This document shows positions 5,257 to 33,747 of a stretch of 61,849 bases of DNA, one piece after another. This DNA is from an uncultured Planctomycetia bacterium (GTDB taxonomy: Bacteria > Omnitrophota > Gorgyraeia > Duberdicusellales > 4484-171). A program made the translations under genes and the position numbers. Location: contig CAZSDJ010000003.1 in NCBI GenBank assembly GCA_964605645.1, forward strand, positions 1 to 61,849. Reading direction: 5' to 3'. Position 1 is the first letter of the stretch. Each line of letters opens with the position of its first letter. The notes under the pieces are model-generated. The model saw nothing but the letters and a program-made list of their open reading frames with translations, ran no database searches and had not been told where the DNA came from.

Positions 5257-6048
5257 CTATCCCCAAATATTATTTAAATCAAATACCGGCCCGTCCTGGC
5301 AGACTTTTTTATAGCCTGATTTGGTAGCAATTACACAGGCGCAGCAAACTCCCAGGCCGCAGCCCATAAATTGTTCAAAAGAAACTTGCGTATTTAAGTT
5401 TTTCTTCTTTTTTGTTGTCTTATGTATCTGGTAAAACATATCTTTGGGACCACAAGCGTAGATACTAGTCCTAAGTTCTAAGTCCAAAGTCCTAAGTTGG
5501 TCCTTTAGTAAATTGGTGACAAAGCCTTTCCGGCCTTTGGAACCATCTTCAGTTGCTACTTTTACCTTAAACCCTAAGTTTCTAAATTCTTTTTCACACA
5601 CTAATTCACGTTTATCCTTAGCCCCCAAGAGTATAATATTTCGGATTTCGGATTTCGGATTTCGGATTTCCTTTAGTTTTTTCGCCAGAAAAACTAAAGG
5701 GGCCACACCTATCCCCCCGGCCACTAAAACAGAGTTTGTATCCTCATCTAACCTGAATCCATTACCTAAGGGGCCGATAATATCCAGCTGGCTTTCTTTT
5801 CTTTTTTTGGATAAAGCTTCCGTGCCTTTGCCTCGTACTTTAAAAAGAATGTAAATTAAATTTTTATCTACTTTATGAATACTCAAAGGCCTGCGCAGAA
5901 TTATTGTTTCTATCTTAATGTGTAAAAAGTTGCCGGGTTGAGCAGTCTTTGCTAGGTGGATAGACTGAAAACTAATCAAAAAGATATCATCTTTTACCCT
6001 TTTAACCTCTTTAACTTTTACTCTAAATTGTTTTACCTTTTTCTGCAT
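5257..6048 (-). CDS. pyrK: dihydroorotate dehydrogenase electron transfer subunit
   Basis: 263 aa. FAD/NAD-binding fold (RRPLSIH, GGIGVAP) and a C-terminal Fe-S cysteine cluster CGLGVCCAC. Contains two internal nucleotide repeats (see findings). Confidence 0.85.
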   Translation of the reverse strand: MQKKVKQFRVKVKEVKRVKDDIFLISFQSIHLAKTAQPGNFLHIKIETIILRRPLSIHKVDKNLIYILFKVRGKGTEALSKKRKESQLDIIGPLGNGFRLDEDTNSVLVAGGIGVAPLVFLAKKLKEIRNPKSEIRNIILLGAKDKRELVCEKEFRNLGFKVKVATEDGSKGRKGFVTNLLKDQLRTLDLELRTSIYACGPKDMFYQIHKTTKKKKNLNTQVSFEQFMGCGLGVCCACVIATKSGYKKVCQDGPVFDLNNIWG

Positions 6049-23955: not shown

Positions 23956-25290
23956 TCATAAGTTTTTAATTTCCTGTGTAAGGCTGTTAATTACTATTTT
24001 TAATTTTTCGTCTTTCTCTAACATTTTTTTTATTTTTTTACAAGCATATAAAATATTAGTGTGATGTTTGCCTCCAAAATACCCCCCAATTTCCGGCAAA
24101 GAACTTTCCGTTAATTCCCGGGTTAAATACATCGCTACCTGCCGCGGCAGAACCAAGGTTTTGCTTCTCTTACTTTTCTTTAAATCTTCTTTTTCAACAC
24201 CATAAAAATCACTAACTTTTGCTAAAATAATTTCCGGGGTAACCCGGGCACTTATTTCGCGAACCATATCTTTTAAAATCCCTCTTGCTAAGTCAACAGT
24301 TATGGTTTTATTTTCAATTAAAGAATAAGCAATGATCCGCACTAAAGCCCCTTCGAGTTCGCGAATATTAGATGAAATATTTTCAGCAATAAAACGAACA
24401 ACTTGGGGTTCTACCTGGACCGCTTCGTTTTCCAGTTTCTTTTCTAAAATTGCAACCCGTGTTTCATAGTCCGGAGTTTGGATATCCACTACCAGCCCCC
24501 AATTAAAACGAGACACTAACCGCTCTTCTAAATCCGGGATTTCTTTCGGCGGCCGGTCTGATGAAACAACGATTTGTTTATGATGGTCGTACAATACATT
24601 AAAGGTATGGAAAAATTCTTCTTGGGAAGCCTCTTTACCCGAAAGAAACTGGATATCATCAATAAGCAGCATATCTATATCCCGGTATTTTTTCCGAAAC
24701 TTATCAGTATTGCGCTGCCGAATTGAAAGAATAAGGTCGTTAGCAAAGCTTTCGGAAGAAAGATATTTTACTTTAGTTTGCGGATCTAAAGAAAGAAGCT
24801 GATTGGAAATAGCTTGCATTAAGTGAGTCTTGCCTAACCCAACCCCACCATAAATAAAAATAGGGTTATATGATTTACCCGGCGCTTTTGCTACAGCTAA
24901 AGAGGCCGCGTGAGCCATCCGGTTTGAAGAACCGACCACAAAATTATCAAATGTAAAACGGGGATTTAAACGCAGTGATGTCTGTGGTTTGTCGCCAAAA
25001 CTTTTGTTGAAAGAACGAAAAATCTTTGTAGTTTTACTTTTCAGTAAGTTGGGATTAACCTTAAAATCAACACTGACTGGTTTCCCGGAAACTTCTTGAG
25101 AGATTTCTTGGATAGAAGACAAGTAATTGCTTTCCACCCAACTTTTAAAGAAACTATCCGGAGCTTCTAAAACAATATTGTCTTTAGTAAATTCTTTTAG
25201 CTGTAAAGGAGAAATCCAAGTATCAAAGGAAGTTTCTCCCAGGCGGGTTTTTAGTTTTTGTTTGCAAGTTTCCCAAATATCTTGTTTCAT
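23956..25290 (-). CDS. dnaA: chromosomal replication initiator DnaA
   Basis: 444 aa. Walker A [10 protein letters not shown], box VII, and the domain IV [37 protein letters not shown]. Confidence 0.95.
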   Translation of the reverse strand: [444 protein letters not shown]

Positions 25291-25756: not shown

Positions 25757-27202
25757 ATGGAAAAAAGATCAATTTTTGCTTTCTTGTTGCTAATCGGGTT
25801 CTTTGTAATCTGGTCTCAGTTTGCTCCAAAACAAGATACACAACCAGTTGATAGTCAAGAAGTTAGCCGCGAAACAATAAATGAAGCGCCAAAACGAGAA
25901 AAGCCGGGGACCGCAGAGCCGATTGACAAATTGTTGCCTGCAGAGGGAGCTCAGTTACAAGAAGTAAAAATAAACAATTATTACATCACTTATTCTAGCC
26001 GGGGCGGCTATCTTCATTCAGTTGCAGCGGGGAAGCCTACTAAAATATTACCTTTTCGCGATATCGGTTTTCAACCTGCTAATCAAAATCGAGAATATCA
26101 AGCGGAGATTAGTGACAATAGCCTTACCTTTGTTAAAGGGGATTCCGGGAAGAAGTTTGTGTTTGATGGTGATATCCTCGAAATTAGAAATGTACCAAAC
26201 TCCCCCATTCTGGCGTTTTCTTTTTCTTTAAATTCCGGAACTACTCAAATAAGTAAAAGATATTTTGAAGTTTTTTATCAGGAACAAGATTCTATCCAAC
26301 GGGCTCATCCTCAAAAAATTAAAGAAGAGAGATATCCCCAAACTAAATTTGCCGGGGCAAGAAGCCGTTATTACGCGTTTAGTTTATTGCCGGGCCGTTA
26401 TGACGTTGAATGGACTAAAAATAAAGAAAAAACAAACCTCTATTTAAACAATCCTCCCTCTACCGTTTCTTTTTATCTCGGCCCCCAGATTACTGACAAA
26501 ATGGATCTTTATGATTTAGGCGGGATAGTTTATTATGGCTTTTGGCACTTTTTGGCAATCGGGATTATCAAAGTCCTCTACTTTTTTTATAGTTTTCTTC
26601 ATAATTGGGGCTTAAGCGTTACATTTCTTTCCTTTTCCACCTATGCAGTATTATTTCCGTTTAGTTCAAAAAGCACCAAAGCCATGAAAAAAATGCAGGA
26701 AATCCAACCTTTAATGCAGGAATTAAAAGAAAAACACAAAGATAATCCGCAAAAAATGCAAAAAGAAACTGTAAAGCTTTACAAAGAACACAAAGTAAAT
26801 CCTTTGGGAGGCTGCTTGCCGCTTCTCTTTCAGTTTCCAATAATTATTGCCTTTTATCAGGTGGTTTTTCGATTTAGCCGCCTCGAAGGGGCTTCTTTCC
26901 TTTGGATTAAAGATTTATCGATGCCGGATCGGCTTTTTCAGCTCCCCTTCACAATCCCGGTTATTAATGTTCAATATTTTAATCTTCTTCCCATATTAGT
27001 AATGCTTTTAGGGATCATTCAGCAACACTTAACTGCATCATCTTCCAATCCTCAGCAAAAAAAGATTGGATTATTTATGGGGGTTTTTATCGGGATAATT
27101 TTCTACAAATTCCCCTCCGCATTAGTTCTCTACTGGTTTATCCAGAATTTACTCACTCTTCTATACCAGGTACGCCTAAAGAAAGCCCGCACCACCGCGT
27201 AA
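25757..27202 (+). CDS. yidC: membrane protein insertase YidC
   Basis: 481 aa. N-terminal TM, periplasmic domain, and conserved C-terminal core (NPLGGCLPLLFQFPI). Confidence 0.9.
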   Translation: MEKRSIFAFLLLIGFFVIWSQFAPKQDTQPVDSQEVSRETINEAPKREKPGTAEPIDKLLPAEGAQLQEVKINNYYITYSSRGGYLHSVAAGKPTKILPFRDIGFQPANQNREYQAEISDNSLTFVKGDSGKKFVFDGDILEIRNVPNSPILAFSFSLNSGTTQISKRYFEVFYQEQDSIQRAHPQKIKEERYPQTKFAGARSRYYAFSLLPGRYDVEWTKNKEKTNLYLNNPPSTVSFYLGPQITDKMDLYDLGGIVYYGFWHFLAIGIIKVLYFFYSFLHNWGLSVTFLSFSTYAVLFPFSSKSTKAMKKMQEIQPLMQELKEKHKDNPQKMQKETVKLYKEHKVNPLGGCLPLLFQFPIIIAFYQVVFRFSRLEGASFLWIKDLSMPDRLFQLPFTIPVINVQYFNLLPILVMLLGIIQQHLTASSSNPQQKKIGLFMGVFIGIIFYKFPSALVLYWFIQNLLTLLYQVRLKKARTTA

Positions 27203-27306: not shown

Positions 27307-27449
27307 CTATAAACCATTGATTCTATTACGTTTTTCCATTTCGACCGTTATTTTTTTAATAATAAACATAAAATTGGTTGCAATTTTATCTATATGGTAT
27401 TAAAATAAGAGAAATCATAAATATTTATATATTGTTGATAACAAAAGAT

Positions 27450-28250
27450 ATGGGTAAAATAATTGGTATTTGTAATCAGAAAGGCGGGACAGGTAAAACC
27501 ACAACCGCAATTAATTTTAGTTCTTTTTTAGGGCTGATGGATAAAAAGACTTTGCTCATTGATATGGATCCGCAAGGTAATGCTTCTTCCGGAGTTGGGT
27601 TGGATTTAGAAGGTAAAAATTCAGTTTATGGCTTGATGTCCGGCGATGTGTCAGCGGAGGAAGCAATTTATGCTACTAATTGGCCAAATCTTTTCATTAT
27701 GCCTTCGGATATTTCCTTAACGGGGGGAGAGGTTGAATTTGTTTCTATGGAAGAGAGGGAAGTTCTTCTAAGACAAAGACTTGGAAAGATAGCCGACAAT
27801 TATTCCTATATAGTCATTGATGCTCCGCCGTCGCTGGGGTTACTTACGGTCAACGTATTATCTGCTGCCGACAGCTTAATTATACCAATTCAATGTGAAT
27901 ATTATGCTTTGGAGGGGGTTTCAAAGTTAATCCATACTGTTGAATTAATAAGAGAAAGGCTAAATCCACACTTAGCGATAGAAGGTGTTTTGTTAACCAT
28001 GGCTGATTTTAGAACCCGGCTCACTTTGCAAGTAATAGAGGAAGTACGGAATTATTTTAAAAATAAAGCTTTTAGTATCGTGGTGCCGAGAAATGTAAAA
28101 TTAGCCGAGGCACCCAGCTTTGGCAAGCCGATTTATTTTTATGAACCTAATTGCGTCGGTTCAAAAGCTTATCTAAGCTTGACTAATGAGGTTACCGGGC
28201 AAGCTAAAAAAATTGAGAACTTTGTGAATAGCGAGGTAAATTATGGCTAA
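27450..28250 (+). CDS. parA: ParA/Soj chromosome partitioning ATPase
   Basis: Start chosen at MGKIIGICNQKGGTGKTT (deviant Walker A). The track ORF starts 72 nt upstream in AT-rich leader. Confidence 0.9.
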   Translation: MGKIIGICNQKGGTGKTTTAINFSSFLGLMDKKTLLIDMDPQGNASSGVGLDLEGKNSVYGLMSGDVSAEEAIYATNWPNLFIMPSDISLTGGEVEFVSMEEREVLLRQRLGKIADNYSYIVIDAPPSLGLLTVNVLSAADSLIIPIQCEYYALEGVSKLIHTVELIRERLNPHLAIEGVLLTMADFRTRLTLQVIEEVRNYFKNKAFSIVVPRNVKLAEAPSFGKPIYFYEPNCVGSKAYLSLTNEVTGQAKKIENFVNSEVNYG

Positions 28251-29064
28251 ACGAGTTTTAGGAAAGGGATTAGATGCTTTAATCCCAAAAAAGAAGATGC
28301 CAAATGGAGATCAATTTATTTATCTGCCAATTGAAAAAATTGAGCCTAACCAGTATCAGCCGCGTAAAGCTATGAACCAGAAGGACTTAGCTGAGTTAAC
28401 TCGTTCTATTCAGGAAAAAGGTTTTATCCAGCCAATTTTAGCACGGGAAATTAAAAATAATCGCTATGAAGTGGTGGCGGGCGGGAGAAGGCTGGAGGCT
28501 GCGAAGCTATTGAAGATCAAAGAGATACCGGCAATAGTTAGAGATTTAGACAATAAAGACTCATTTATTGCGGCGATAGTGGAAAATTTACAGCGAAAAA
28601 ATCTAAATCCGATTGAAGAAGCCGAGGCTCTTGTTCGCTTAAAGGAGGAATTTAATTTTTCCCTCGATGAAATTGCTCAATTTATCAGCAAAGACAAAAC
28701 GACCGTAACCAATACAATCAGGCTTTTGAAGTTACCGACTAAAATTAAAAAAGCCTTGGAAGAAAATTTAATTAATCGCAGCCAAGCCCGCACCATCCTT
28801 TCTTTTCAGAGCAAAGTGCAGCAAGAAAAAATATTTTATAAAATTTTACAAAAAGGATTAACCGTAAGAGATGTAGAAAAAGAAGCATCACAACAAAAAA
28901 AGACAACAAAAAAAGATCCCTTTATCGAGGAAGCTGAGGAAAAATTACAAAAAATCCTGGGGACAAAAGTTAAAATCACTACTTCAAAACAGAAAAAAGG
29001 AAAAATTATTTTAGATTATTATAACTTAACTGATTTTGAAAGAATCGTAAATAGAATTACCTAG
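28243..29064 (+). CDS. parB: ParB/Spo0J chromosome partitioning protein
   Basis: 273 aa. ParB box GGRRLEAAK and an HTH region. Overlaps parA. Confidence 0.9.
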   Translation: MAKRVLGKGLDALIPKKKMPNGDQFIYLPIEKIEPNQYQPRKAMNQKDLAELTRSIQEKGFIQPILAREIKNNRYEVVAGGRRLEAAKLLKIKEIPAIVRDLDNKDSFIAAIVENLQRKNLNPIEEAEALVRLKEEFNFSLDEIAQFISKDKTTVTNTIRLLKLPTKIKKALEENLINRSQARTILSFQSKVQQEKIFYKILQKGLTVRDVEKEASQQKKTTKKDPFIEEAEEKLQKILGTKVKITTSKQKKGKIILDYYNLTDFERIVNRIT

Positions 29065-30373: not shown

Positions 30374-30936
30374 CAAAACCAAAAATCTTTATTTTATCGG
30401 GGCCGGGCGGGGTAGGTAAAACTACTTTGGTTAAGCATCTTTTTCGGAAAAAACCGATAAAAGAAGCATTACTAAAGACCATAACTGTGACAACGAGAGC
30501 AAAAAGGCCGCAAGAAAAAAATGGGAAGGATTATTTCTTTGTAGATAAGGATGAATTCTTATATATAAAGAAAAAGAAATTTTTCTTAGAAAATGAAAAA
30601 GTGCTGAATGATTATTACGGCACTCCAAAATTCTATTTAAACATTGCAAAAATAAAAAATAAAAACCTGCTTCTTTGTATCGACGTAAAAGGAGGGATAA
30701 AATTAAAAAAACGATATAAAAAAAATGCAGTAAGTATTTTTATTAGCGTTCCCAAAAAACGAGAGTTGTACAATAGAATGAAAAAGAGAGATGAATCAAA
30801 TGATATAATTGAGAAAAGAATTGAACTGGCAAAAAAAGAGTTGCAATTTTCCAAAAAATATGATTATTTAGTACAAAACAAAAATATAAATACAACAGCA
30901 AGAAAGATAAAAGATATAATACTAAAACAACAATAG
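30370..30936 (+). CDS. gmk: guanylate kinase
   Basis: 188 aa. P-loop LSGPGGVGKTTL and TTRAKRPQEKNGKDYFFV. Confidence 0.88.
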   Translation: MTKPKIFILSGPGGVGKTTLVKHLFRKKPIKEALLKTITVTTRAKRPQEKNGKDYFFVDKDEFLYIKKKKFFLENEKVLNDYYGTPKFYLNIAKIKNKNLLLCIDVKGGIKLKKRYKKNAVSIFISVPKKRELYNRMKKRDESNDIIEKRIELAKKELQFSKKYDYLVQNKNINTTARKIKDIILKQQ

Positions 30937-30987
30937 ACAACAGCACACAATCCAGCACAATTAAACAGAATAATAGGAGGAGGCAGG

Positions 30988-31233
30988 ATGGTAAATGATT
31001 ATATACCGAGAGAAAGGCTTTTAGCAGCAACTAGCGGCTCTATTTATAAACTAACTGTTTTAGCTGCAAAAAGAGCTATGATTTTGGCAGAAGGGGAGAA
31101 GCCTTTAGTTGAACAAAATACTGAAAAGTTATTAGATTTAGCTTTAAGAGAAATAGAGGAGAAAAAGGTAGAGGAGGCCAAAGGGAAAACAAAAAAGAAC
31201 AAAAAAGAAGAAAAGGAAACTAAAAAGAAGTAA
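30988..31233 (+). CDS. rpoZ: DNA-directed RNA polymerase subunit omega
   Basis: 81 aa. SIYKLTVLAAKRA core. Position after gmk. Confidence 0.8.
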   Translation: MVNDYIPRERLLAATSGSIYKLTVLAAKRAMILAEGEKPLVEQNTEKLLDLALREIEEKKVEEAKGKTKKNKKEEKETKKK

Positions 31234-31257
31234 TTGGTCTTTGGAAAAAACATAATC

Positions 31258-31329
31258 GGCGCGGTAGCCAAACGGCAAGGCGGTGGTTTGCAAAACCATT
31301 ATTTACCGGTTCAAATCCGGTCCGCGCCT
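31258..31329 (+). tRNA. tRNA-Cys (anticodon GCA)
   Basis: Hand-folded. Acceptor GGCGCGG/CCGCGCC, anticodon arm GTGGT-TTGCAAA-ACCAT, T arm ACCGG-TTCAAAT-CCGGT. Confidence 0.85.
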
Positions 31330-31335
31330 TGCACA

Positions 31336-31355
31336 AAAGGGGTCACACCTATTTT
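31336..31355. repeat. solo copy of the GGTCACACCT repeat that flanks RAYT unit 2
   Basis: AAAAGGGGTCACACCTATTTT, compared with 32346-32364 and the inverted copy at 33064-33079. Confidence 0.6.
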
Positions 31356-31367
31356 TTACATATATTT

Positions 31368-31440
31368 GCCGGGGTGTTGGTAAGAGCTTCTTGCCGAAGG
31401 CAAGTTAACTTGTTTAGACTTGGTTAGCTCTTCCCAAAAA
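31368..31440 (+). repeat. 13-nt duplicate of the tRNA-Leu 5-prime end followed by a conserved hairpin module
   Basis: GCCGGGGTGTTGG is identical to 31504-31516. It is followed by outer stem AAGAGCT/AGCTCTT and inner hairpin TTGCCGAAGGCAA, the same architecture as 17403-17470. Confidence 0.7.
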
Positions 31441-31503
31441 CTTTATAGATAGAATAAAACTATTGCTGATTTGATAAATCGGAAGATTAAATATAAATTT
31501 ATT

Positions 31504-31589
31504 GCCGGGGTGTTGGAATTGGCAGACAACTCGGACTTAAAATCCGGTGTTCCGAAAGGGACGTGCGGGTTCAAGTCCCGCCCCCGGCA
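31504..31589 (+). tRNA. tRNA-Leu (anticodon UAA)
   Basis: Hand-folded. Acceptor GCCGGGG/CCCCGGC, anticodon loop CTTAAAA, long variable arm, T arm GCGGG-TTCAAGT-CCCGC. Confidence 0.85.
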
Positions 31590-31660
31590 TTCTTTCGCAT
31601 AGTGCAAAGAGCATAGCATATAGTGAAAACATTTATGAACGCTGTGCGTTAGATGTTTTT

Positions 31661-31737
31661 GGGCGATTAGCTCAGTTGGTTAGAGTACTACCTTGACATG
31701 GTAGGGGTCACAGGTTCGAATCCTGTATCGCCCACCA
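31661..31737 (+). tRNA. tRNA-Val (anticodon GAC), CCA encoded
   Basis: Hand-folded. Acceptor GGGCGAT/ATCGCCC, anticodon arm CTACC-TTGACAT-GGTAG, T arm ACAGG-TTCGAAT-CCTGT. Confidence 0.88.
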
Positions 31738-31810
31738 GTAAAAATATTTCAAAAAGTTGGTTGACAACTAAATAGCTTAGGATACAATTATTATCCTTTC
31801 TAAAAAAATC

Positions 31811-31971
31811 GGGGTCGTCGATTTCCCGCCCAGAGTTAAGCTGATGGCGGGATCCCGCCCATGTGTTTAGTTGCTAGGCGGGAAGTCTGGCTTCCCCGCT
31901 CCTGATGGCAGGAGATGAAAGAGCGGGGCCCCGCCCGAGTGTTTAGGCTGCTATGCGGGGAAGTCCCCTGC
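31811..31971 (+). repeat. tRNA-Asp 5-prime-half pseudo-copy split into three pieces by GC-rich hairpin repeats
   Basis: GGGGTCGTCGATT (31811-31823), AGTCTGGCTT (31884-31893) and AAGTCCCCTGC (31961-31971) reproduce nt 1-45 of the tRNA-Asp at 32227 in order. They are separated by hairpins of the form CCCGCCC-N17-GGCGGG. Confidence 0.7.
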
Positions 31972-32169
31972 GGGGGGGGTTACGTTCTAGAAAACACTGT
32001 AACTAAGTTGCATTATGTTGGCTGCACGCACAATCTTGATGCAAGAATAAAAGAACATAATGTTAAGCGCAAGCGAAAATGGTTAGGCCGGCAAAGTGGG
32101 AAATGGGTGTTAGCCTACAAAGATCCTTTTTTGAAAAAGCAGGATGCTTTAGCTTGTGAAAAAAAATAA
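31915..32169 (+). CDS. small GIY-YIG nuclease family protein (possibly frameshifted at an A8 run)
   Basis: 84 aa. YVLENTVTKLHYVGCTHNLDARIKEHN matches the GIY..YIG..R..EHN core. The expected C-terminal helix (IKRKKSRKYIEHLIENY) is in the -1 frame after A8 at 32159-32166. Confidence 0.65.
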   Translation: MKERGPARVFRLLCGEVPCGGGYVLENTVTKLHYVGCTHNLDARIKEHNVKRKRKWLGRQSGKWVLAYKDPFLKKQDALACEKK

Positions 32170-32226
32170 AACGGAAGAAAAGTCGTAAATATATAGAACA
32201 TCTTATTGAAAATTATAAAAGCAATT

Positions 32227-32305
32227 CGGGGTCGTCGATTAGTCTGGCTTAAGTCCCCTGCCTGTCACGCAGGTGATCGTGGGTTCGAATCCCATCGACC
32301 CCGCC
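32227..32305 (+). tRNA. tRNA-Asp (anticodon GUC), CCA encoded
   Basis: Hand-folded. Acceptor GGGGTCG/CGACCCC, D stem GATT/AGTC, anticodon arm CCTGC-CTGTCAC-GCAGG, T arm GTGGG-TTCGAAT-CCCAT. Confidence 0.8.
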
Positions 32306-32370
32306 ATATTTCGTCCTTTGATTTTGACGTAATCACGTGAAGTAGAAAAGGGTCACACCTGTTTAATTTA

Positions 32371-32399
32371 TTGACAGATGCATTACCCAAGCATATAAT
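32371..32399 (+). promoter_or_regulatory. sigma70-type promoter of RAYT unit 2
   Basis: TTGACA (32371-32376), 17-nt spacer, TATAAT (32394-32399), 7 nt before the ATG at 32407. Confidence 0.55.
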
Positions 32400-32406
32400 A
32401 TTGAAC

Positions 32407-33069
32407 ATGTCTCGCCAGATTCGTTACATTGTCCCCAAAATCCCTCATCACGCTCTCCAGCGAGGCAATAATCGTCAGGTAATATTTTTTGATGAAAAAA
32501 ACAAAAAGTATTTCTGCGATAATCTTAAAAAATACAGCAGAGAACAAAAAGTCTCTATCGGCGCCTATTGCCTCATGACTAACCACCTGCATTTACTCAT
32601 ATACCCGGATACAGAGAAAGGTTTAATCAATTTTATGAAAGCTATCAGTCAAACTTATACTCAGTATATTAACCGGAAATATAAAAGAAGCGGTAAGTTG
32701 TGGGAGAATAGGTATAAGTTGCACTTGGTTGACCCTGATTATGAGCGGGTAGTATCCCGCTATATCGAATTAAATCCAGTCAGGGCTAATATGGTAAATA
32801 ATCCTTGCGATTATCAGTATTCAAGCGCGAGAAAAAACCTTAAAAATATATCAGATTGCATAGTAAACATAAATATAATTAAAGGAAAACATAAAGATTA
32901 TCAGGATTTCATAAAAGAAAAGATCCAAGAAAAGGAATTAAAGAAAATACGCGAGGCCTTACAACAAAACAAAGCCTTCGGCACAGAAAAGTTTATCAAA
33001 GGATTAGAGAAAAGATTCAATAAAACTTTTAAAGTAAGAAAAAGAGGCAGGCCTATAAGTGAAAAATAG
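32407..33069 (+). CDS. REP-associated tyrosine transposase-like protein (Y1_Tnp superfamily)
   Basis: Start moved to MSRQIRY, because the track start is the TTG of the -35 box. IPHHALQRGNNRQ, HUH NHLHLLI, YIELNPVRA. Confidence 0.8.
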   Translation: MSRQIRYIVPKIPHHALQRGNNRQVIFFDEKNKKYFCDNLKKYSREQKVSIGAYCLMTNHLHLLIYPDTEKGLINFMKAISQTYTQYINRKYKRSGKLWENRYKLHLVDPDYERVVSRYIELNPVRANMVNNPCDYQYSSARKNLKNISDCIVNINIIKGKHKDYQDFIKEKIQEKELKKIREALQQNKAFGTEKFIKGLEKRFNKTFKVRKRGRPISEK

Positions 33070-33071
33070 GT

Positions 33072-33224
33072 GTGACCACTTTTGCTCTTTTGCTCACTCT
33101 CTACCGGTTAATTAAACAAGGCAAACTTCCTAATTTTAAAGTTGGCGGCCAGTGGCGGGTTAAAAAAGAGCTGCTTGATTCGTGGATCAGAAAAAAGCCG
33201 GAAGAAAATAAAAAAGAGGAGTAA
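33072..33224 (+). pseudogene. truncated excisionase-type (HTH_17-like) DNA-binding gene fragment
   Basis: My translation is ...LYRLIKQGKLPNFKVGGQWRVKKELLDSWIRKKPEENKKEE, which matches the recognition helix and wing of excisionase-family HTH proteins. The first helix is missing and the fragment starts inside the right repeat of RAYT unit 2. Confidence 0.45.
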
Positions 33225-33240
33225 TAAAAAGAGAGAAGTT

Positions 33241-33747
33241 ATGGAGCAGAAAAGCAGGCATAATTGGTATGCTTTATATACAAAGTCCCGCCATGAGAAG
33301 TTTGTTGAGGCAGAACTTCTCAAAAAAGGCATAGCGGCCTTTACTCCCAAAGTAACTTACCGCCGGAGATGGTCAGACCGGATAAAATATATCAAAGAGC
33401 CTTTATTTAAAAGCTATTGTTTTGCCAAATTCCCCTTAAAAGATAAACCTAAAGTTGTTTCCCAGGCCGGGGTGGTTACGGTGGTCCATTTTAGAAGCCA
33501 GTATATTCCTATCTCTGAGAAAACCATTGATTCTTTAAAGATTATTACCACTACTAATTACCAAGCAAATCCCTGTCCTTACCTAAAGACAGGTGATTAT
33601 GTATATATAAAGAAAGGCCCCCTAAAAGGGGTAGAAGGGTTTATTTTAGAAAAGAGAAACAAAAACACAAGCGTTGTTATCTCAGTTGATGCTTTGGCAT
33701 CAGCGGTTAGTTGTGTTGTAGGGATAGATTGCGTCGAGCTCTCGTAG
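33241..33747 (+). CDS. UpxY-like NusG-family transcription antiterminator
   Basis: Start at MEQKSRHNWYALYTKSRHEK (NGN domain). KOW motif GDYVYIKKGPLKGVEGFILEK. Sits upstream of a polysaccharide locus. Confidence 0.75.
   Translation: MEQKSRHNWYALYTKSRHEKFVEAELLKKGIAAFTPKVTYRRRWSDRIKYIKEPLFKSYCFAKFPLKDKPKVVSQAGVVTVVHFRSQYIPISEKTIDSLKIITTTNYQANPCPYLKTGDYVYIKKGPLKGVEGFILEKRNKNTSVVISVDALASAVSCVVGIDCVELS

Follow-up and report, generated by a model that had tools for sequence, protein, structure and literature searches.

A probable selfish GIY-YIG nuclease cassette with a hairpin-interrupted tRNA copy in the tRNA-Asp transcription unit of an uncultured Omnitrophota bacterium

The stretch of DNA analysed here, referred to as the window, comprises 61,849 nt of contig CAZSDJ010000003.1, from an uncultured bacterium placed by GTDB in the Omnitrophota. 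It contains an intact tRNA-Asp gene, an interrupted copy of the 5′ part of that gene and, between the two, a degenerate gene for a GIY-YIG nuclease. We consider this locus to be probably a small selfish and recombination-driven GIY-YIG nuclease cassette, which lies inside the tRNA-Asp transcription unit, keeps one tRNA intact and belongs to a widespread family. The interpretation as a mobile cassette is based on the recurrence of the same three-part layout beside tRNA genes in many phyla. The unit of this family consists of an 80–95-aa GIY-YIG gene, a direct duplication of the tRNA and one to four palindromic hairpins of the form (T/C)CCCG / CGGG(A/G). The cassette is tied to tRNA genes, is polymorphic among relatives, forms tandem arrays and is sometimes decayed. 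Because part of the neighbouring tRNA gene is directly duplicated, one intact tRNA remains.

The family was surveyed at no fewer than 143 loci (designated by L numbers) from genome and metagenome scans. The surveyed phyla include Bacteroidota, Ignavibacteriota, Cloacimonadota, Fidelibacterota, Marinimicrobia, Planctomycetota and Thermodesulfovibrionales; almost all of the matches listed belong to the Fibrobacterota–Chlorobiota–Bacteroidota (FCB) group. Among these matches only L084 resembles the window type, and the close relatives described below were retrieved individually by their proteins. At 98 of the 143 listed loci, a tRNA gene lies on the same strand at most 400 nt upstream or at most 100 nt downstream of the open reading frame (ORF); at a further 39, the ORF is less than 400 nt from a contig edge. 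The tRNAs beside the cassettes at the listed loci are Ala(GGC), Asp, Met, Val, Arg, Lys, Asn and Gly. The usual order in the FCB group is the intact tRNA, a spacer of 15–70 nt, the ORF, and then a second version of that tRNA, starting near position 8, together with the spacer. This polarity is opposite to that of the window, and in most phyla the hairpin-bearing copy is located downstream of the ORF. In the FCB-group loci, the homology between intact tRNA and remnant spans the whole spacer, and the direct repeat measures approximately 70–140 nt. The stop codon lies beyond the start of the tRNA-like remnant in 68 of 72 loci; thus, the tail of the protein is encoded by tRNA sequence. Tandem arrays of two to five units are common (L001, L019 with five units, L020, L029, L061 and L164), and in those examined a hairpin is present in every unit whereas only the terminal tRNA is intact. 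Some remnants at L029 and L069 are full-length tRNA-like genes with their own promoter and terminator. The runs that contain the window are DNA runs only; when RNA runs were searched with the Cloacimonadota cassette L016, about 15% of its words were present, and these were taken to be the tRNA part.

The window layout itself is found in five other probable Omnitrophota lineages (L002–L004; L084; L164; L165/L166; L167/L168), so that filled sites are present in six lineages including the window. In each of the five, a promoter is followed by a tRNA-Asp 5′ remnant with hairpins, the ORF and the intact tRNA-Asp. The pairing of GIY-YIG genes with tRNA genes, and the accompanying hairpin, to which a first-pass annotation of the window had drawn attention, are hence not peculiar to this genome. 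The components of the window locus are as follows:

31761–31788, plus strand: sigma-70-type promoter, TTGACA-16-TACAAT, with 11 of 12 consensus positions matched
31806–31823, plus strand: left direct repeat, piece a, a 5-nt flank and tRNA-Asp positions 1–13 (GGGGTCGTCGATT)
31824–31883: insertion 1, hairpin 1 (hp1) and hairpin 2 (hp2), TCCCGCC...GGCGGGA, at the junction of the D-stem 5′ strand and the D-loop
31824–31852: hp1
31853–31883: hp2
31884–31893, plus strand: left direct repeat, piece b, the D-loop AGTCTGGCTT, identical to 32241–32250
31894–31960: insertion 2, hairpin 3 (hp3) and hairpin 4 (hp4), at the junction of the D-loop and the D-stem 3′ strand
31894–31928: hp3, CCCCGCTC..GAGCGGGG
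31929–31960: hp4, CCCCGC..GCGGGG
31961–31971, plus strand: left direct repeat, piece c, AAGTCCCCTGC, the D-stem 3′ strand and the anticodon-stem 5′ strand, identical to 32251–32261
31981–32252, plus strand: degenerate GIY-YIG (UPF0213/Slx1-like) nuclease gene, located by PF01541, three-frame translation and homologue alignment
32223–32227 (the 5-nt flank) and the first 34 nt of tRNA-Asp, plus strand: right direct repeat
32228–32306, plus strand: intact tRNA-Asp(GTC), 54 bits

Both ARAGORN and Rfam confirm that this tRNA-Asp is intact, as had been reported. Its split copy comprises 34 nt (31811–31823, 31884–31893 and 31961–31971), exact and colinear with the tRNA and located about 417 nt upstream of it. 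The first-pass annotation had described a copy of positions 1–45 in three ordered segments; the exact, colinear blocks are borne out, but the copy covers tRNA positions 1–31 and stops at the boundary between anticodon stem and loop (31/32). In a local alignment with cheap gaps, the copy scores 64, compared with 25 ± 4.5 and a maximum of 43 in 500 shuffles, which rules out a chance match; the cheap gap extension was needed to recover the copy, as MAFFT at default gap costs misaligned it. Piece a is identical to 32223–32240 at 17 of 18 positions, the lone mismatch being in the 5-nt flank while all 13 tRNA positions are equal. The direct repeat around the ORF, ignoring the hairpins, thus consists of 34 identical tRNA nucleotides and 2 identical flank nucleotides, i.e., 36 nt. 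The two insertions are of 60 and 67 nt, as originally measured, and both are bounded by T on the 5′ side and A on the 3′ side, one at either edge of the D-loop. Four hairpins fill them without a leftover base, the last of which begins at 31929 and not at 31939 as first described. An assembly artefact was also considered as an explanation and ruled out, in that the region is base-for-base identical in an independent assembly of the source run X1.

No further promoter-like site was found between the promoter at 31761–31788 and tRNA-Asp. This promoter is probably the original promoter of tRNA-Asp, now driving the remnant, the ORF and tRNA-Asp as a single transcript.

The only ORF between the repeats is the GIY-YIG gene. 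The mechanical ORF, 31915–32169, matches Pfam PF01541 with an E-value of 2.9e-8 (34.3 bits; cutoff 22.6). It had been proposed that the last hairpin and the adjoining tRNA piece encode the N-terminus of this protein, but the conserved GIY-YIG domain begins only at Tyr 31981. The MxxY start of the homologues is absent from the window gene; instead, a G8 run adjoins the remnant (compare ATGTGGTGGGTGTAT in L002 with GGGGGGGGTTAC in the window). In addition, a −1 frameshift in an A8 run (32159–32166) removes the conserved C-terminus, including the near-invariant KSRKYIE helix. This C-terminus (KKIKRKKSRKYIEHLIENYKSNSGSSISLA, then stop) runs on in the other frame to a TAA at 32250–32252, inside the D-loop of the tRNA; that is, the 5′ part of tRNA-Asp encodes the last 8 codons and the stop of the frame-corrected ORF. 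The window ORF is 49–60% identical to its homologues and retains the catalytic positions Y, Y, G, R, H, N and E, and a 96%-identical copy in run X2 has an A9 run and an open frame. With its start lost and its frame shifted, the window gene is not an intact, translatable one. Because the canonical start is lost, a −1 frameshift is present and a relative has the A9 open frame, we conclude that the window copy is decaying. The sequence at the frameshift, A8 followed by TAA (GAA AAA AAA TAA), resembles a slippery context for −1 ribosomal frameshifting or transcriptional slippage. Some product could be rescued at low level by slippage on the A run; we take the frameshift to be a mutation since the relatives have an uninterrupted frame.

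In the relatives, the ORF encodes about 90 aa, and its last codons and stop lie inside the intact tRNA-Asp. The tails of the homologues, ...GSSISLA or ...GVVD followed by the stop, are two reading frames of one tRNA-Asp 5′ sequence. L002–L004, whose protein P0052 is from a Candidatus Omnitrophota metagenome-assembled genome, are syntenic with the window (YicC-Gmk-RpoZ-tRNA-Cys/Leu/Val). Promoters equivalent to that of the window precede the remnant in L002, L084 and L165. At the junction of the D-loop and the D-stem 3′ strand, one or two hairpins are present in all of the probable Omnitrophota relatives examined (L002, L004, L084, L164, L165 and L167), while at the other edge of the D-loop, next to the D-stem 5′ strand, the window, L084 and L165 have two hairpins each and L164 and L167 have none. 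The D-loop occurs in four variants, namely AGTCTGGCTT, AGCCTGGTTT, AGCCCGGTTT and AGCCTGGCTT, and in all four haplotypes the remnant equals the tRNA of its own genome. This match between remnant and resident tRNA in each genome therefore indicates continuing gene conversion or repeated re-creation of the remnant.

An empty site was found in a relative from another metagenome, run X2. There, contig 14 links position 31769 to position 32226 by 36 nt of diverged promoter, and the order is tRNA-Val, promoter, tRNA-Asp, with no remnant, hairpins or ORF. The cassette-bearing relative with the A9 run is present in the same sample. The tRNA-Asp site is thus polymorphic for the presence of the cassette.

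A second, divergent GIY-YIG subfamily (tail ...KSFKRKDIVERII...) is found at tRNA-Val with the same design (L166 95–505, L165 651–1045 and L002 3372–3644). In these cassettes, an upstream tRNA-Val copy, in which the anticodon arm is replaced by TCCCGACGTTGCGTCGGGA and which ends in the T loop, is followed by the ORF and the intact tRNA-Val. Of these three loci, only L166 has an intact ORF; that of L165 is decayed, and L002 has lost it. Short pieces consisting of AATTCGAC, a hairpin and GTCTCATTGA adjoin tRNA fragments at L002 3463–3805 and at L084 767–905 and 1673–1690, and duplicated 3′ ends of tRNA-Val (from the T loop) and of tRNA-Asp are located downstream of the intact genes, with no ORF between, in L002/L084. 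These sequences may have been left behind by lost cassettes or by another small element.

The four palindromic hairpins of the window conform to (T/C)CCCG...CGGG(A/G), and hp1, hp2 and hp4 are paralogues in the same orientation, with 25 of 29–31 nt identical. Strict matches to the motif number 2 in the window, compared with 0.02 expected, and none is found outside the cassette in 62 kb. At the surveyed loci, hairpin density is 2.2 per kb near the GIY-YIG ORFs and 0.18 per kb elsewhere in the same loci, a 12-fold difference, so the hairpins are not ubiquitous intergenic repeats, the finding that the first-pass annotation had named as fatal to its proposal. A perfect 7-bp stem capped by a 4-nt loop is the form most often seen among 147 distinct hairpins; the two inner pairs covary, and internal G·T or A·C pairs are absent. 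The lack of internal mismatches in the 147 hairpins points to selection or templating at the level of DNA, and not of one RNA strand. By the same token, a strand-bias test comparing G·T with A·C pairs had no internal mismatches to work on and yields no strand information.

Where hairpins are present, they are always in the non-functional tRNA copy, with one to four per family member. The hairpin takes the place of the anticodon arm in the dead copies of the Ala, Met, Val, Lys and Arg types; it replaces or invades the T arm in the Asp types (L029, Ignavibacteria) and in L069; and it lies in the D-loop in the window, L084, L164 and L165 lineages, in L043 (Bacteroidota, tRNA-Gly) and in L061. At the Planctomycetota locus L005 (2975–3040), the hairpin TCCCGACTTGTGTCGGGA is present three times in tandem, with GTTA spacers, between a tRNA-Lys 5′ remnant and the GIY-YIG start. 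From these three tandem copies it appears that hairpin units multiply by themselves. Three candidate roles suggest themselves. The hairpin may disrupt the target of the nuclease in the spare copy and so confer immunity; it may be a structured substrate or recombination site of the enzyme; or it may reduce deletions between the repeats. The window hairpins shorten the longest uninterrupted repeat to 15 nt, whereas FCB-group loci still have about 70 nt.

The proteins of the family are 80–95 aa long and have a single domain, with PF01541 in all listed homologues. The family was opened up by a two-sequence profile search, the repaired window ORF alone having given one match. The resulting profile retrieves 6100 clusters at 50% identity with E-values up to 1e-3, and 534 with E-values up to 1e-10. 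Residues Y5, Y16, G18, R26, H30, N31 and E64 are invariant among 40 sequences. Against the sequences in the PDB, the profile matches the UPF0213 protein BH0048 (E-value 1.5e-8) and SLX1 (3.7e-3). An AlphaFold model of P0052, with a predicted local distance difference test score (pLDDT) of 81, has the topology beta-beta-alpha-beta-alpha-alpha, and in Foldseek searches it matches 1zg2 and Slx1 (6seh) with probability 1.0 and I-TevI with 0.5. The family protein is thus predicted, from profile and model, to be a minimal UPF0213/Slx1-like GIY-YIG nuclease. NCBIfam, PADLOC and PHROGs gave weak, generic matches only, driven by the GIY-YIG motif; in PADLOC, E-values were no better than 1.7e-4 to the candidate PDC-S14 and UzuA models over 21–33 residues, and the best match was a generic homing-endonuclease model. 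P0052 has no match in 50,697 phage records, and P0003, a second member tested, has a single distant match (35%) among plasmids.

The mechanism we envisage is as follows. The nuclease would break DNA at or near the tRNA gene, and homologous recombination, by way of the tRNA-derived repeats, would then copy the hairpin-bearing remnant and the ORF into an empty allele or add a tandem unit. With repeated recombination of this kind, the remnant would stay the same in sequence as the resident tRNA. The hairpins may be cassette-borne elements acting at the DNA level, either by rendering the spare copy immune or as the substrate of a Slx1-like structure-specific nuclease. Transcripts of tRNA-Asp probably start at the captured promoter, run through the cassette and are cut by RNase P to free the tRNA, a cut that would also take off the stop codon of the ORF. 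The first-pass annotation had offered a homing-type relic as one of two possibilities, and this one holds up for the most part, by virtue of the X2 empty site, the same cassette at tRNA-Asp in five lineages, and the decay of the window gene. Which repeat is the original and which the replacement is not distinguishable from sequence, however, and endonuclease-driven homing is a step that we infer.

Several considerations weigh against the selfish, nuclease-driven cassette. We know of no cleavage activity or target for any member of the family. The filled allele keeps an intact tRNA, and a nuclease that recognises tRNA genes would therefore cut its own host locus. Classical homing takes place without target duplication, and yet a direct repeat flanks the gene (34–36 nt in the window, about 100 nt in the FCB group); likewise, the protein is the catalytic domain alone, without the separate DNA-binding domain for long targets (as in I-TevI and the Seg proteins) that gives classical GIY-YIG homing endonucleases their specificity. 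In both respects, the cassette departs from free-standing homing endonucleases. Apart from the distant P0003 match, searches of phage and plasmid sequences with two members gave nothing that would point to a vehicle for horizontal transfer. Finally, an exact deletion between the repeats would explain the X2 empty site just as well as an allele that was never invaded.

A free-standing homing-type nuclease gene at tRNA loci is of a known kind; there is a real chance, though, that the unit of hairpin and minimal nuclease is new and constitutes a mobile-element class of its own. In its full form this proposal is one we advance tentatively, giving it less than even standing: a cassette of about 330–420 bp, composed of a minimal Slx1-like nuclease and a perfect palindrome of about 18–40 nt (TCCCG...CGGGA) in a disabled tRNA copy, would parasitise tRNA transcription units in at least seven phyla, would move or amplify by hairpin- or cruciform-directed cleavage and homologous recombination, possibly as a circular unit, and would borrow its stop codon from the tRNA. 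Searches of the open-access full-text literature, and a 2006 phylogenomic survey of GIY-YIG proteins, gave no description of the layout and its linkage to tRNA, in keeping with the earlier remark that no element of this layout was known.

The strongest of the alternatives, which we nevertheless think rather doubtful, is a cassette directed by the hairpin itself, comparable to an integron cassette or an IS200/IS605-type element. Here, the TCCCG...CGGGA hairpin would be the recombination or cleavage site, read as single-stranded DNA or cruciform by the Slx1-like nuclease; a circle of about 330–420 bp, carrying the ORF and the hairpin-bearing tRNA piece, would excise and re-integrate into the cognate tRNA gene by a single crossover; and the tRNA gene would not be the target of the nuclease. 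The conservation of the stem base over at least seven phyla, with loops and inner pairs that vary under strict complementarity and without G·T pairs, is as expected for such a site, and the nearest relatives of solved structure are structure-specific nucleases. A single crossover of a circle would also yield both polarities, the remnant being upstream in the window lineage and downstream in the FCB group, and the arrays, with a hairpin in every unit and only the terminal tRNA copy intact, are likewise as expected. Two independent assemblies each contain an isolated cycle of 372 nt (L167 and L168). However, no circle was observed directly, and the assembly cycle would look the same for a tandem array in high copy number; recombinase or transposase activity is not known for any GIY-YIG enzyme; and the position of the hairpin in the tRNA copy differs between lineages.

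The contigs in question, L167 1–513 and L168 1–513, are MEGAHIT k141 contigs from different samples. Each consists of a 372-nt unit (remnant, hairpins and ORF) with a 141-nt terminal overlap, and the two are different circular permutations. They represent an isolated cycle of the assembly graph, that is, either a high-copy tandem array or a free 372-bp circle.

A function for the hairpin remnant as structured RNA was the other possibility raised in the first-pass annotation, as a tRNA-like leader. In this case the remnant would be the leader (in other phyla, the trailer) of the GIY-YIG mRNA and would control its processing, stability or translation, e.g., as an autoregulatory protein-binding site. 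The remnant does lie between promoter and ORF, here and in the relatives; the region folds at −91.4 kcal/mol (z = −3.7 relative to shuffles); the stems covary; and in FCB-group loci the hairpin begins about 20 nt or less from the stop codon. This explanation is disfavoured, and we judge it improbable. The element moves from 5′ to 3′ of the ORF between lineages, lying downstream in most phyla, and has one to four hairpins at differing tRNA positions. The 147 distinct stems are purely Watson-Crick, without G·U pairs or strand bias, the loops are not conserved, and there is no Rfam match besides tRNA.

It is similarly unlikely that the module benefits its host, whether by a nuclease that promotes tRNA-gene amplification or repair (e.g., against tRNA-targeting toxins) or by a toxin-antitoxin or defence pair formed by the hairpin-bearing tRNA-like RNA and the nuclease. 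For phage T6, the tRNA-gene amplification driven by SegB is adaptive (PMC13096335), some remnants (those of L029 and L069) are full-length tRNA-like genes with promoter and terminator, and the family is retained very widely. Nevertheless, the arrays multiply the dead copy and the ORF and never the intact tRNA, decayed copies (the window; tRNA-Val in L165) and empty sites exist, and the matches to PADLOC defence models are weak.

Finally, repetitive extragenic palindromic (REP) repeats or REPINs, mobilised by the downstream REP-associated tyrosine transposase (RAYT, IS200-like, of the Y1 type, at 32407–33069) and landed by chance in a dead tRNA fragment, are a nearly refuted explanation: a Y1_Tnp gene does lie 100 nt past the tRNA (PF01797, E-value 1.7e-15), hp1 and hp2 can jointly fold as one long REPIN-like hairpin and both insertions are between T and A, but the RAYT gene is bracketed by a different inverted motif, AAAGGGTCACACCT, TCCCG hairpins are confined to the cassette in 62 kb, and hairpins accompany the GIY-YIG gene in L002, L084, L164 and L165, with no Y1_Tnp among the called genes of L002, L164 and L165 and none seen in the L084 sequence read or, likewise, in the loci of other phyla.

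The RAYT-type gene has a perfect sigma-70 promoter of its own (32371–32399). Inverted copies of AAAGGGTCACACCT are at 32346–32360 (plus strand) and 33068–33082 (minus strand), with further copies at 31336–31350, after tRNA-Cys, and at 5696–5710; these 4 matches compare with 0.09 expected. The segment 32304–33098 is missing from the contig of a relative in run X2, and because of this absence the RAYT insertion is taken to be a second and independent one beside tRNA-Asp. Elsewhere in the window, dnaA (23956–25290, minus strand), yidC (25757–27202), parA (27378–28250) and parB (28243–29064) are present, and the cumulative GC skew has its minimum near 26–27 kb. On account of this gene region and the skew minimum, the tRNA cluster and the cassette are placed about 6 kb from the probable replication origin.

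If the interpretation as a selfish cassette is correct, one of the smallest nuclease genes known would be a successful genomic parasite of tRNA genes, spanning Bacteroidota, Ignavibacteriota, Cloacimonadota, Fidelibacterota, Marinimicrobia, Planctomycetota, Thermodesulfovibrionales and probable Omnitrophota, and rendered harmless without splicing, through duplication of the tRNA piece that it displaces. It would account for ORFs that overlap tRNAs, with peptide tails such as ...LISSVG, ...GSSISLA and ...GGRPD, for pseudo-tRNAs with 4-nt ‘anticodons’, and for contig breaks beside tRNAs. Bacterial chromosomes would also owe some of their duplicated tRNA genes and tandem arrays to it, in parallel to SegB amplification in phages. 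The pairing of a minimal GIY-YIG domain with a defined small DNA hairpin would bear on the role of the bacterial UPF0213/Slx1-like proteins, and could yield a compact structure- or sequence-specific nuclease.

Among known systems, the closest analogue, and the nearest experimental precedent, is SegB of phages T4 and T6, a free-standing GIY-YIG homing endonuclease in a tRNA gene cluster (PMC2330249; PMC13096335). SegB is frequently linked to tRNA genes; in T6 it drives a recombination-dependent tandem amplification of the tRNA together with a 3′-truncated segB, mediated by the microhomology that the 5′ end of the tRNA shares with the 3′ end of segB (PMC13096335). Both systems place a GIY-YIG gene among tRNA genes; SegB cleaves within tRNA-containing DNA and promotes its own inheritance, and its microhomology matches the fusion of ORF 3′ end and tRNA 5′ end, and the arrays, of the cassette. 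SegB differs in being phage-borne, whereas the cassette proteins are chromosomal 80–95-aa catalytic domains of the UPF0213/Slx1 branch, and in that no hairpin-interrupted tRNA remnant is described for it. SegB is also larger than the cassette proteins and has a DNA-binding region.

Integrative elements that target tRNA genes, i.e., tyrosine-integrase islands and prophages with attL/attR tRNA duplications, resemble the cassette in inserting into a tRNA gene, leaving a partial direct repeat and regenerating a functional tRNA. The cassette, in contrast, encodes no tyrosine or serine integrase between its repeats, and the whole element measures about 0.4 kb; the Y1_Tnp gene is outside the tRNA repeats and has its own inverted-repeat boundaries. 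The window duplicates the 5′ portion with a captured promoter and not the 3′ end, and one repeat always has palindromic hairpins. Group I introns with homing-endonuclease genes in the anticodon loops of bacterial tRNAs (PMC3984707) are likewise selfish, nuclease-bearing insertions in tRNA genes that are phenotypically neutral. The cassette contains no ribozyme and is neutral by duplication of a tRNA segment rather than by RNA splicing; an intron was rejected upon an Rfam scan of 30900–33300 (E-values up to 1) and scans of 15 loci at gathering thresholds, which gave tRNAs and two sub-threshold chance matches only.

The UPF0213 proteins (BH0048, PDB 1zg2; EF2693, PDB 1ywl), of which E. coli YhbQ is another, and eukaryotic Slx1 share the minimal GIY-YIG fold and motifs with the cassette protein, and a hairpin substrate would be in keeping with the cleavage of branched and stem-loop DNA by Slx1. 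No tRNA linkage, hairpin partner or mobility, however, is reported for UPF0213/Slx1 proteins. Lastly, the REP/RAYT systems and the attC cassettes of integrons likewise have short hairpins that apparently act at the DNA level, and small units that accumulate in tandem. Their enzymes are HUH Y1 transposases or tyrosine recombinases, in contrast to a GIY-YIG protein, and the units of the cassette family each encode their own enzyme and are tied to a tRNA gene.

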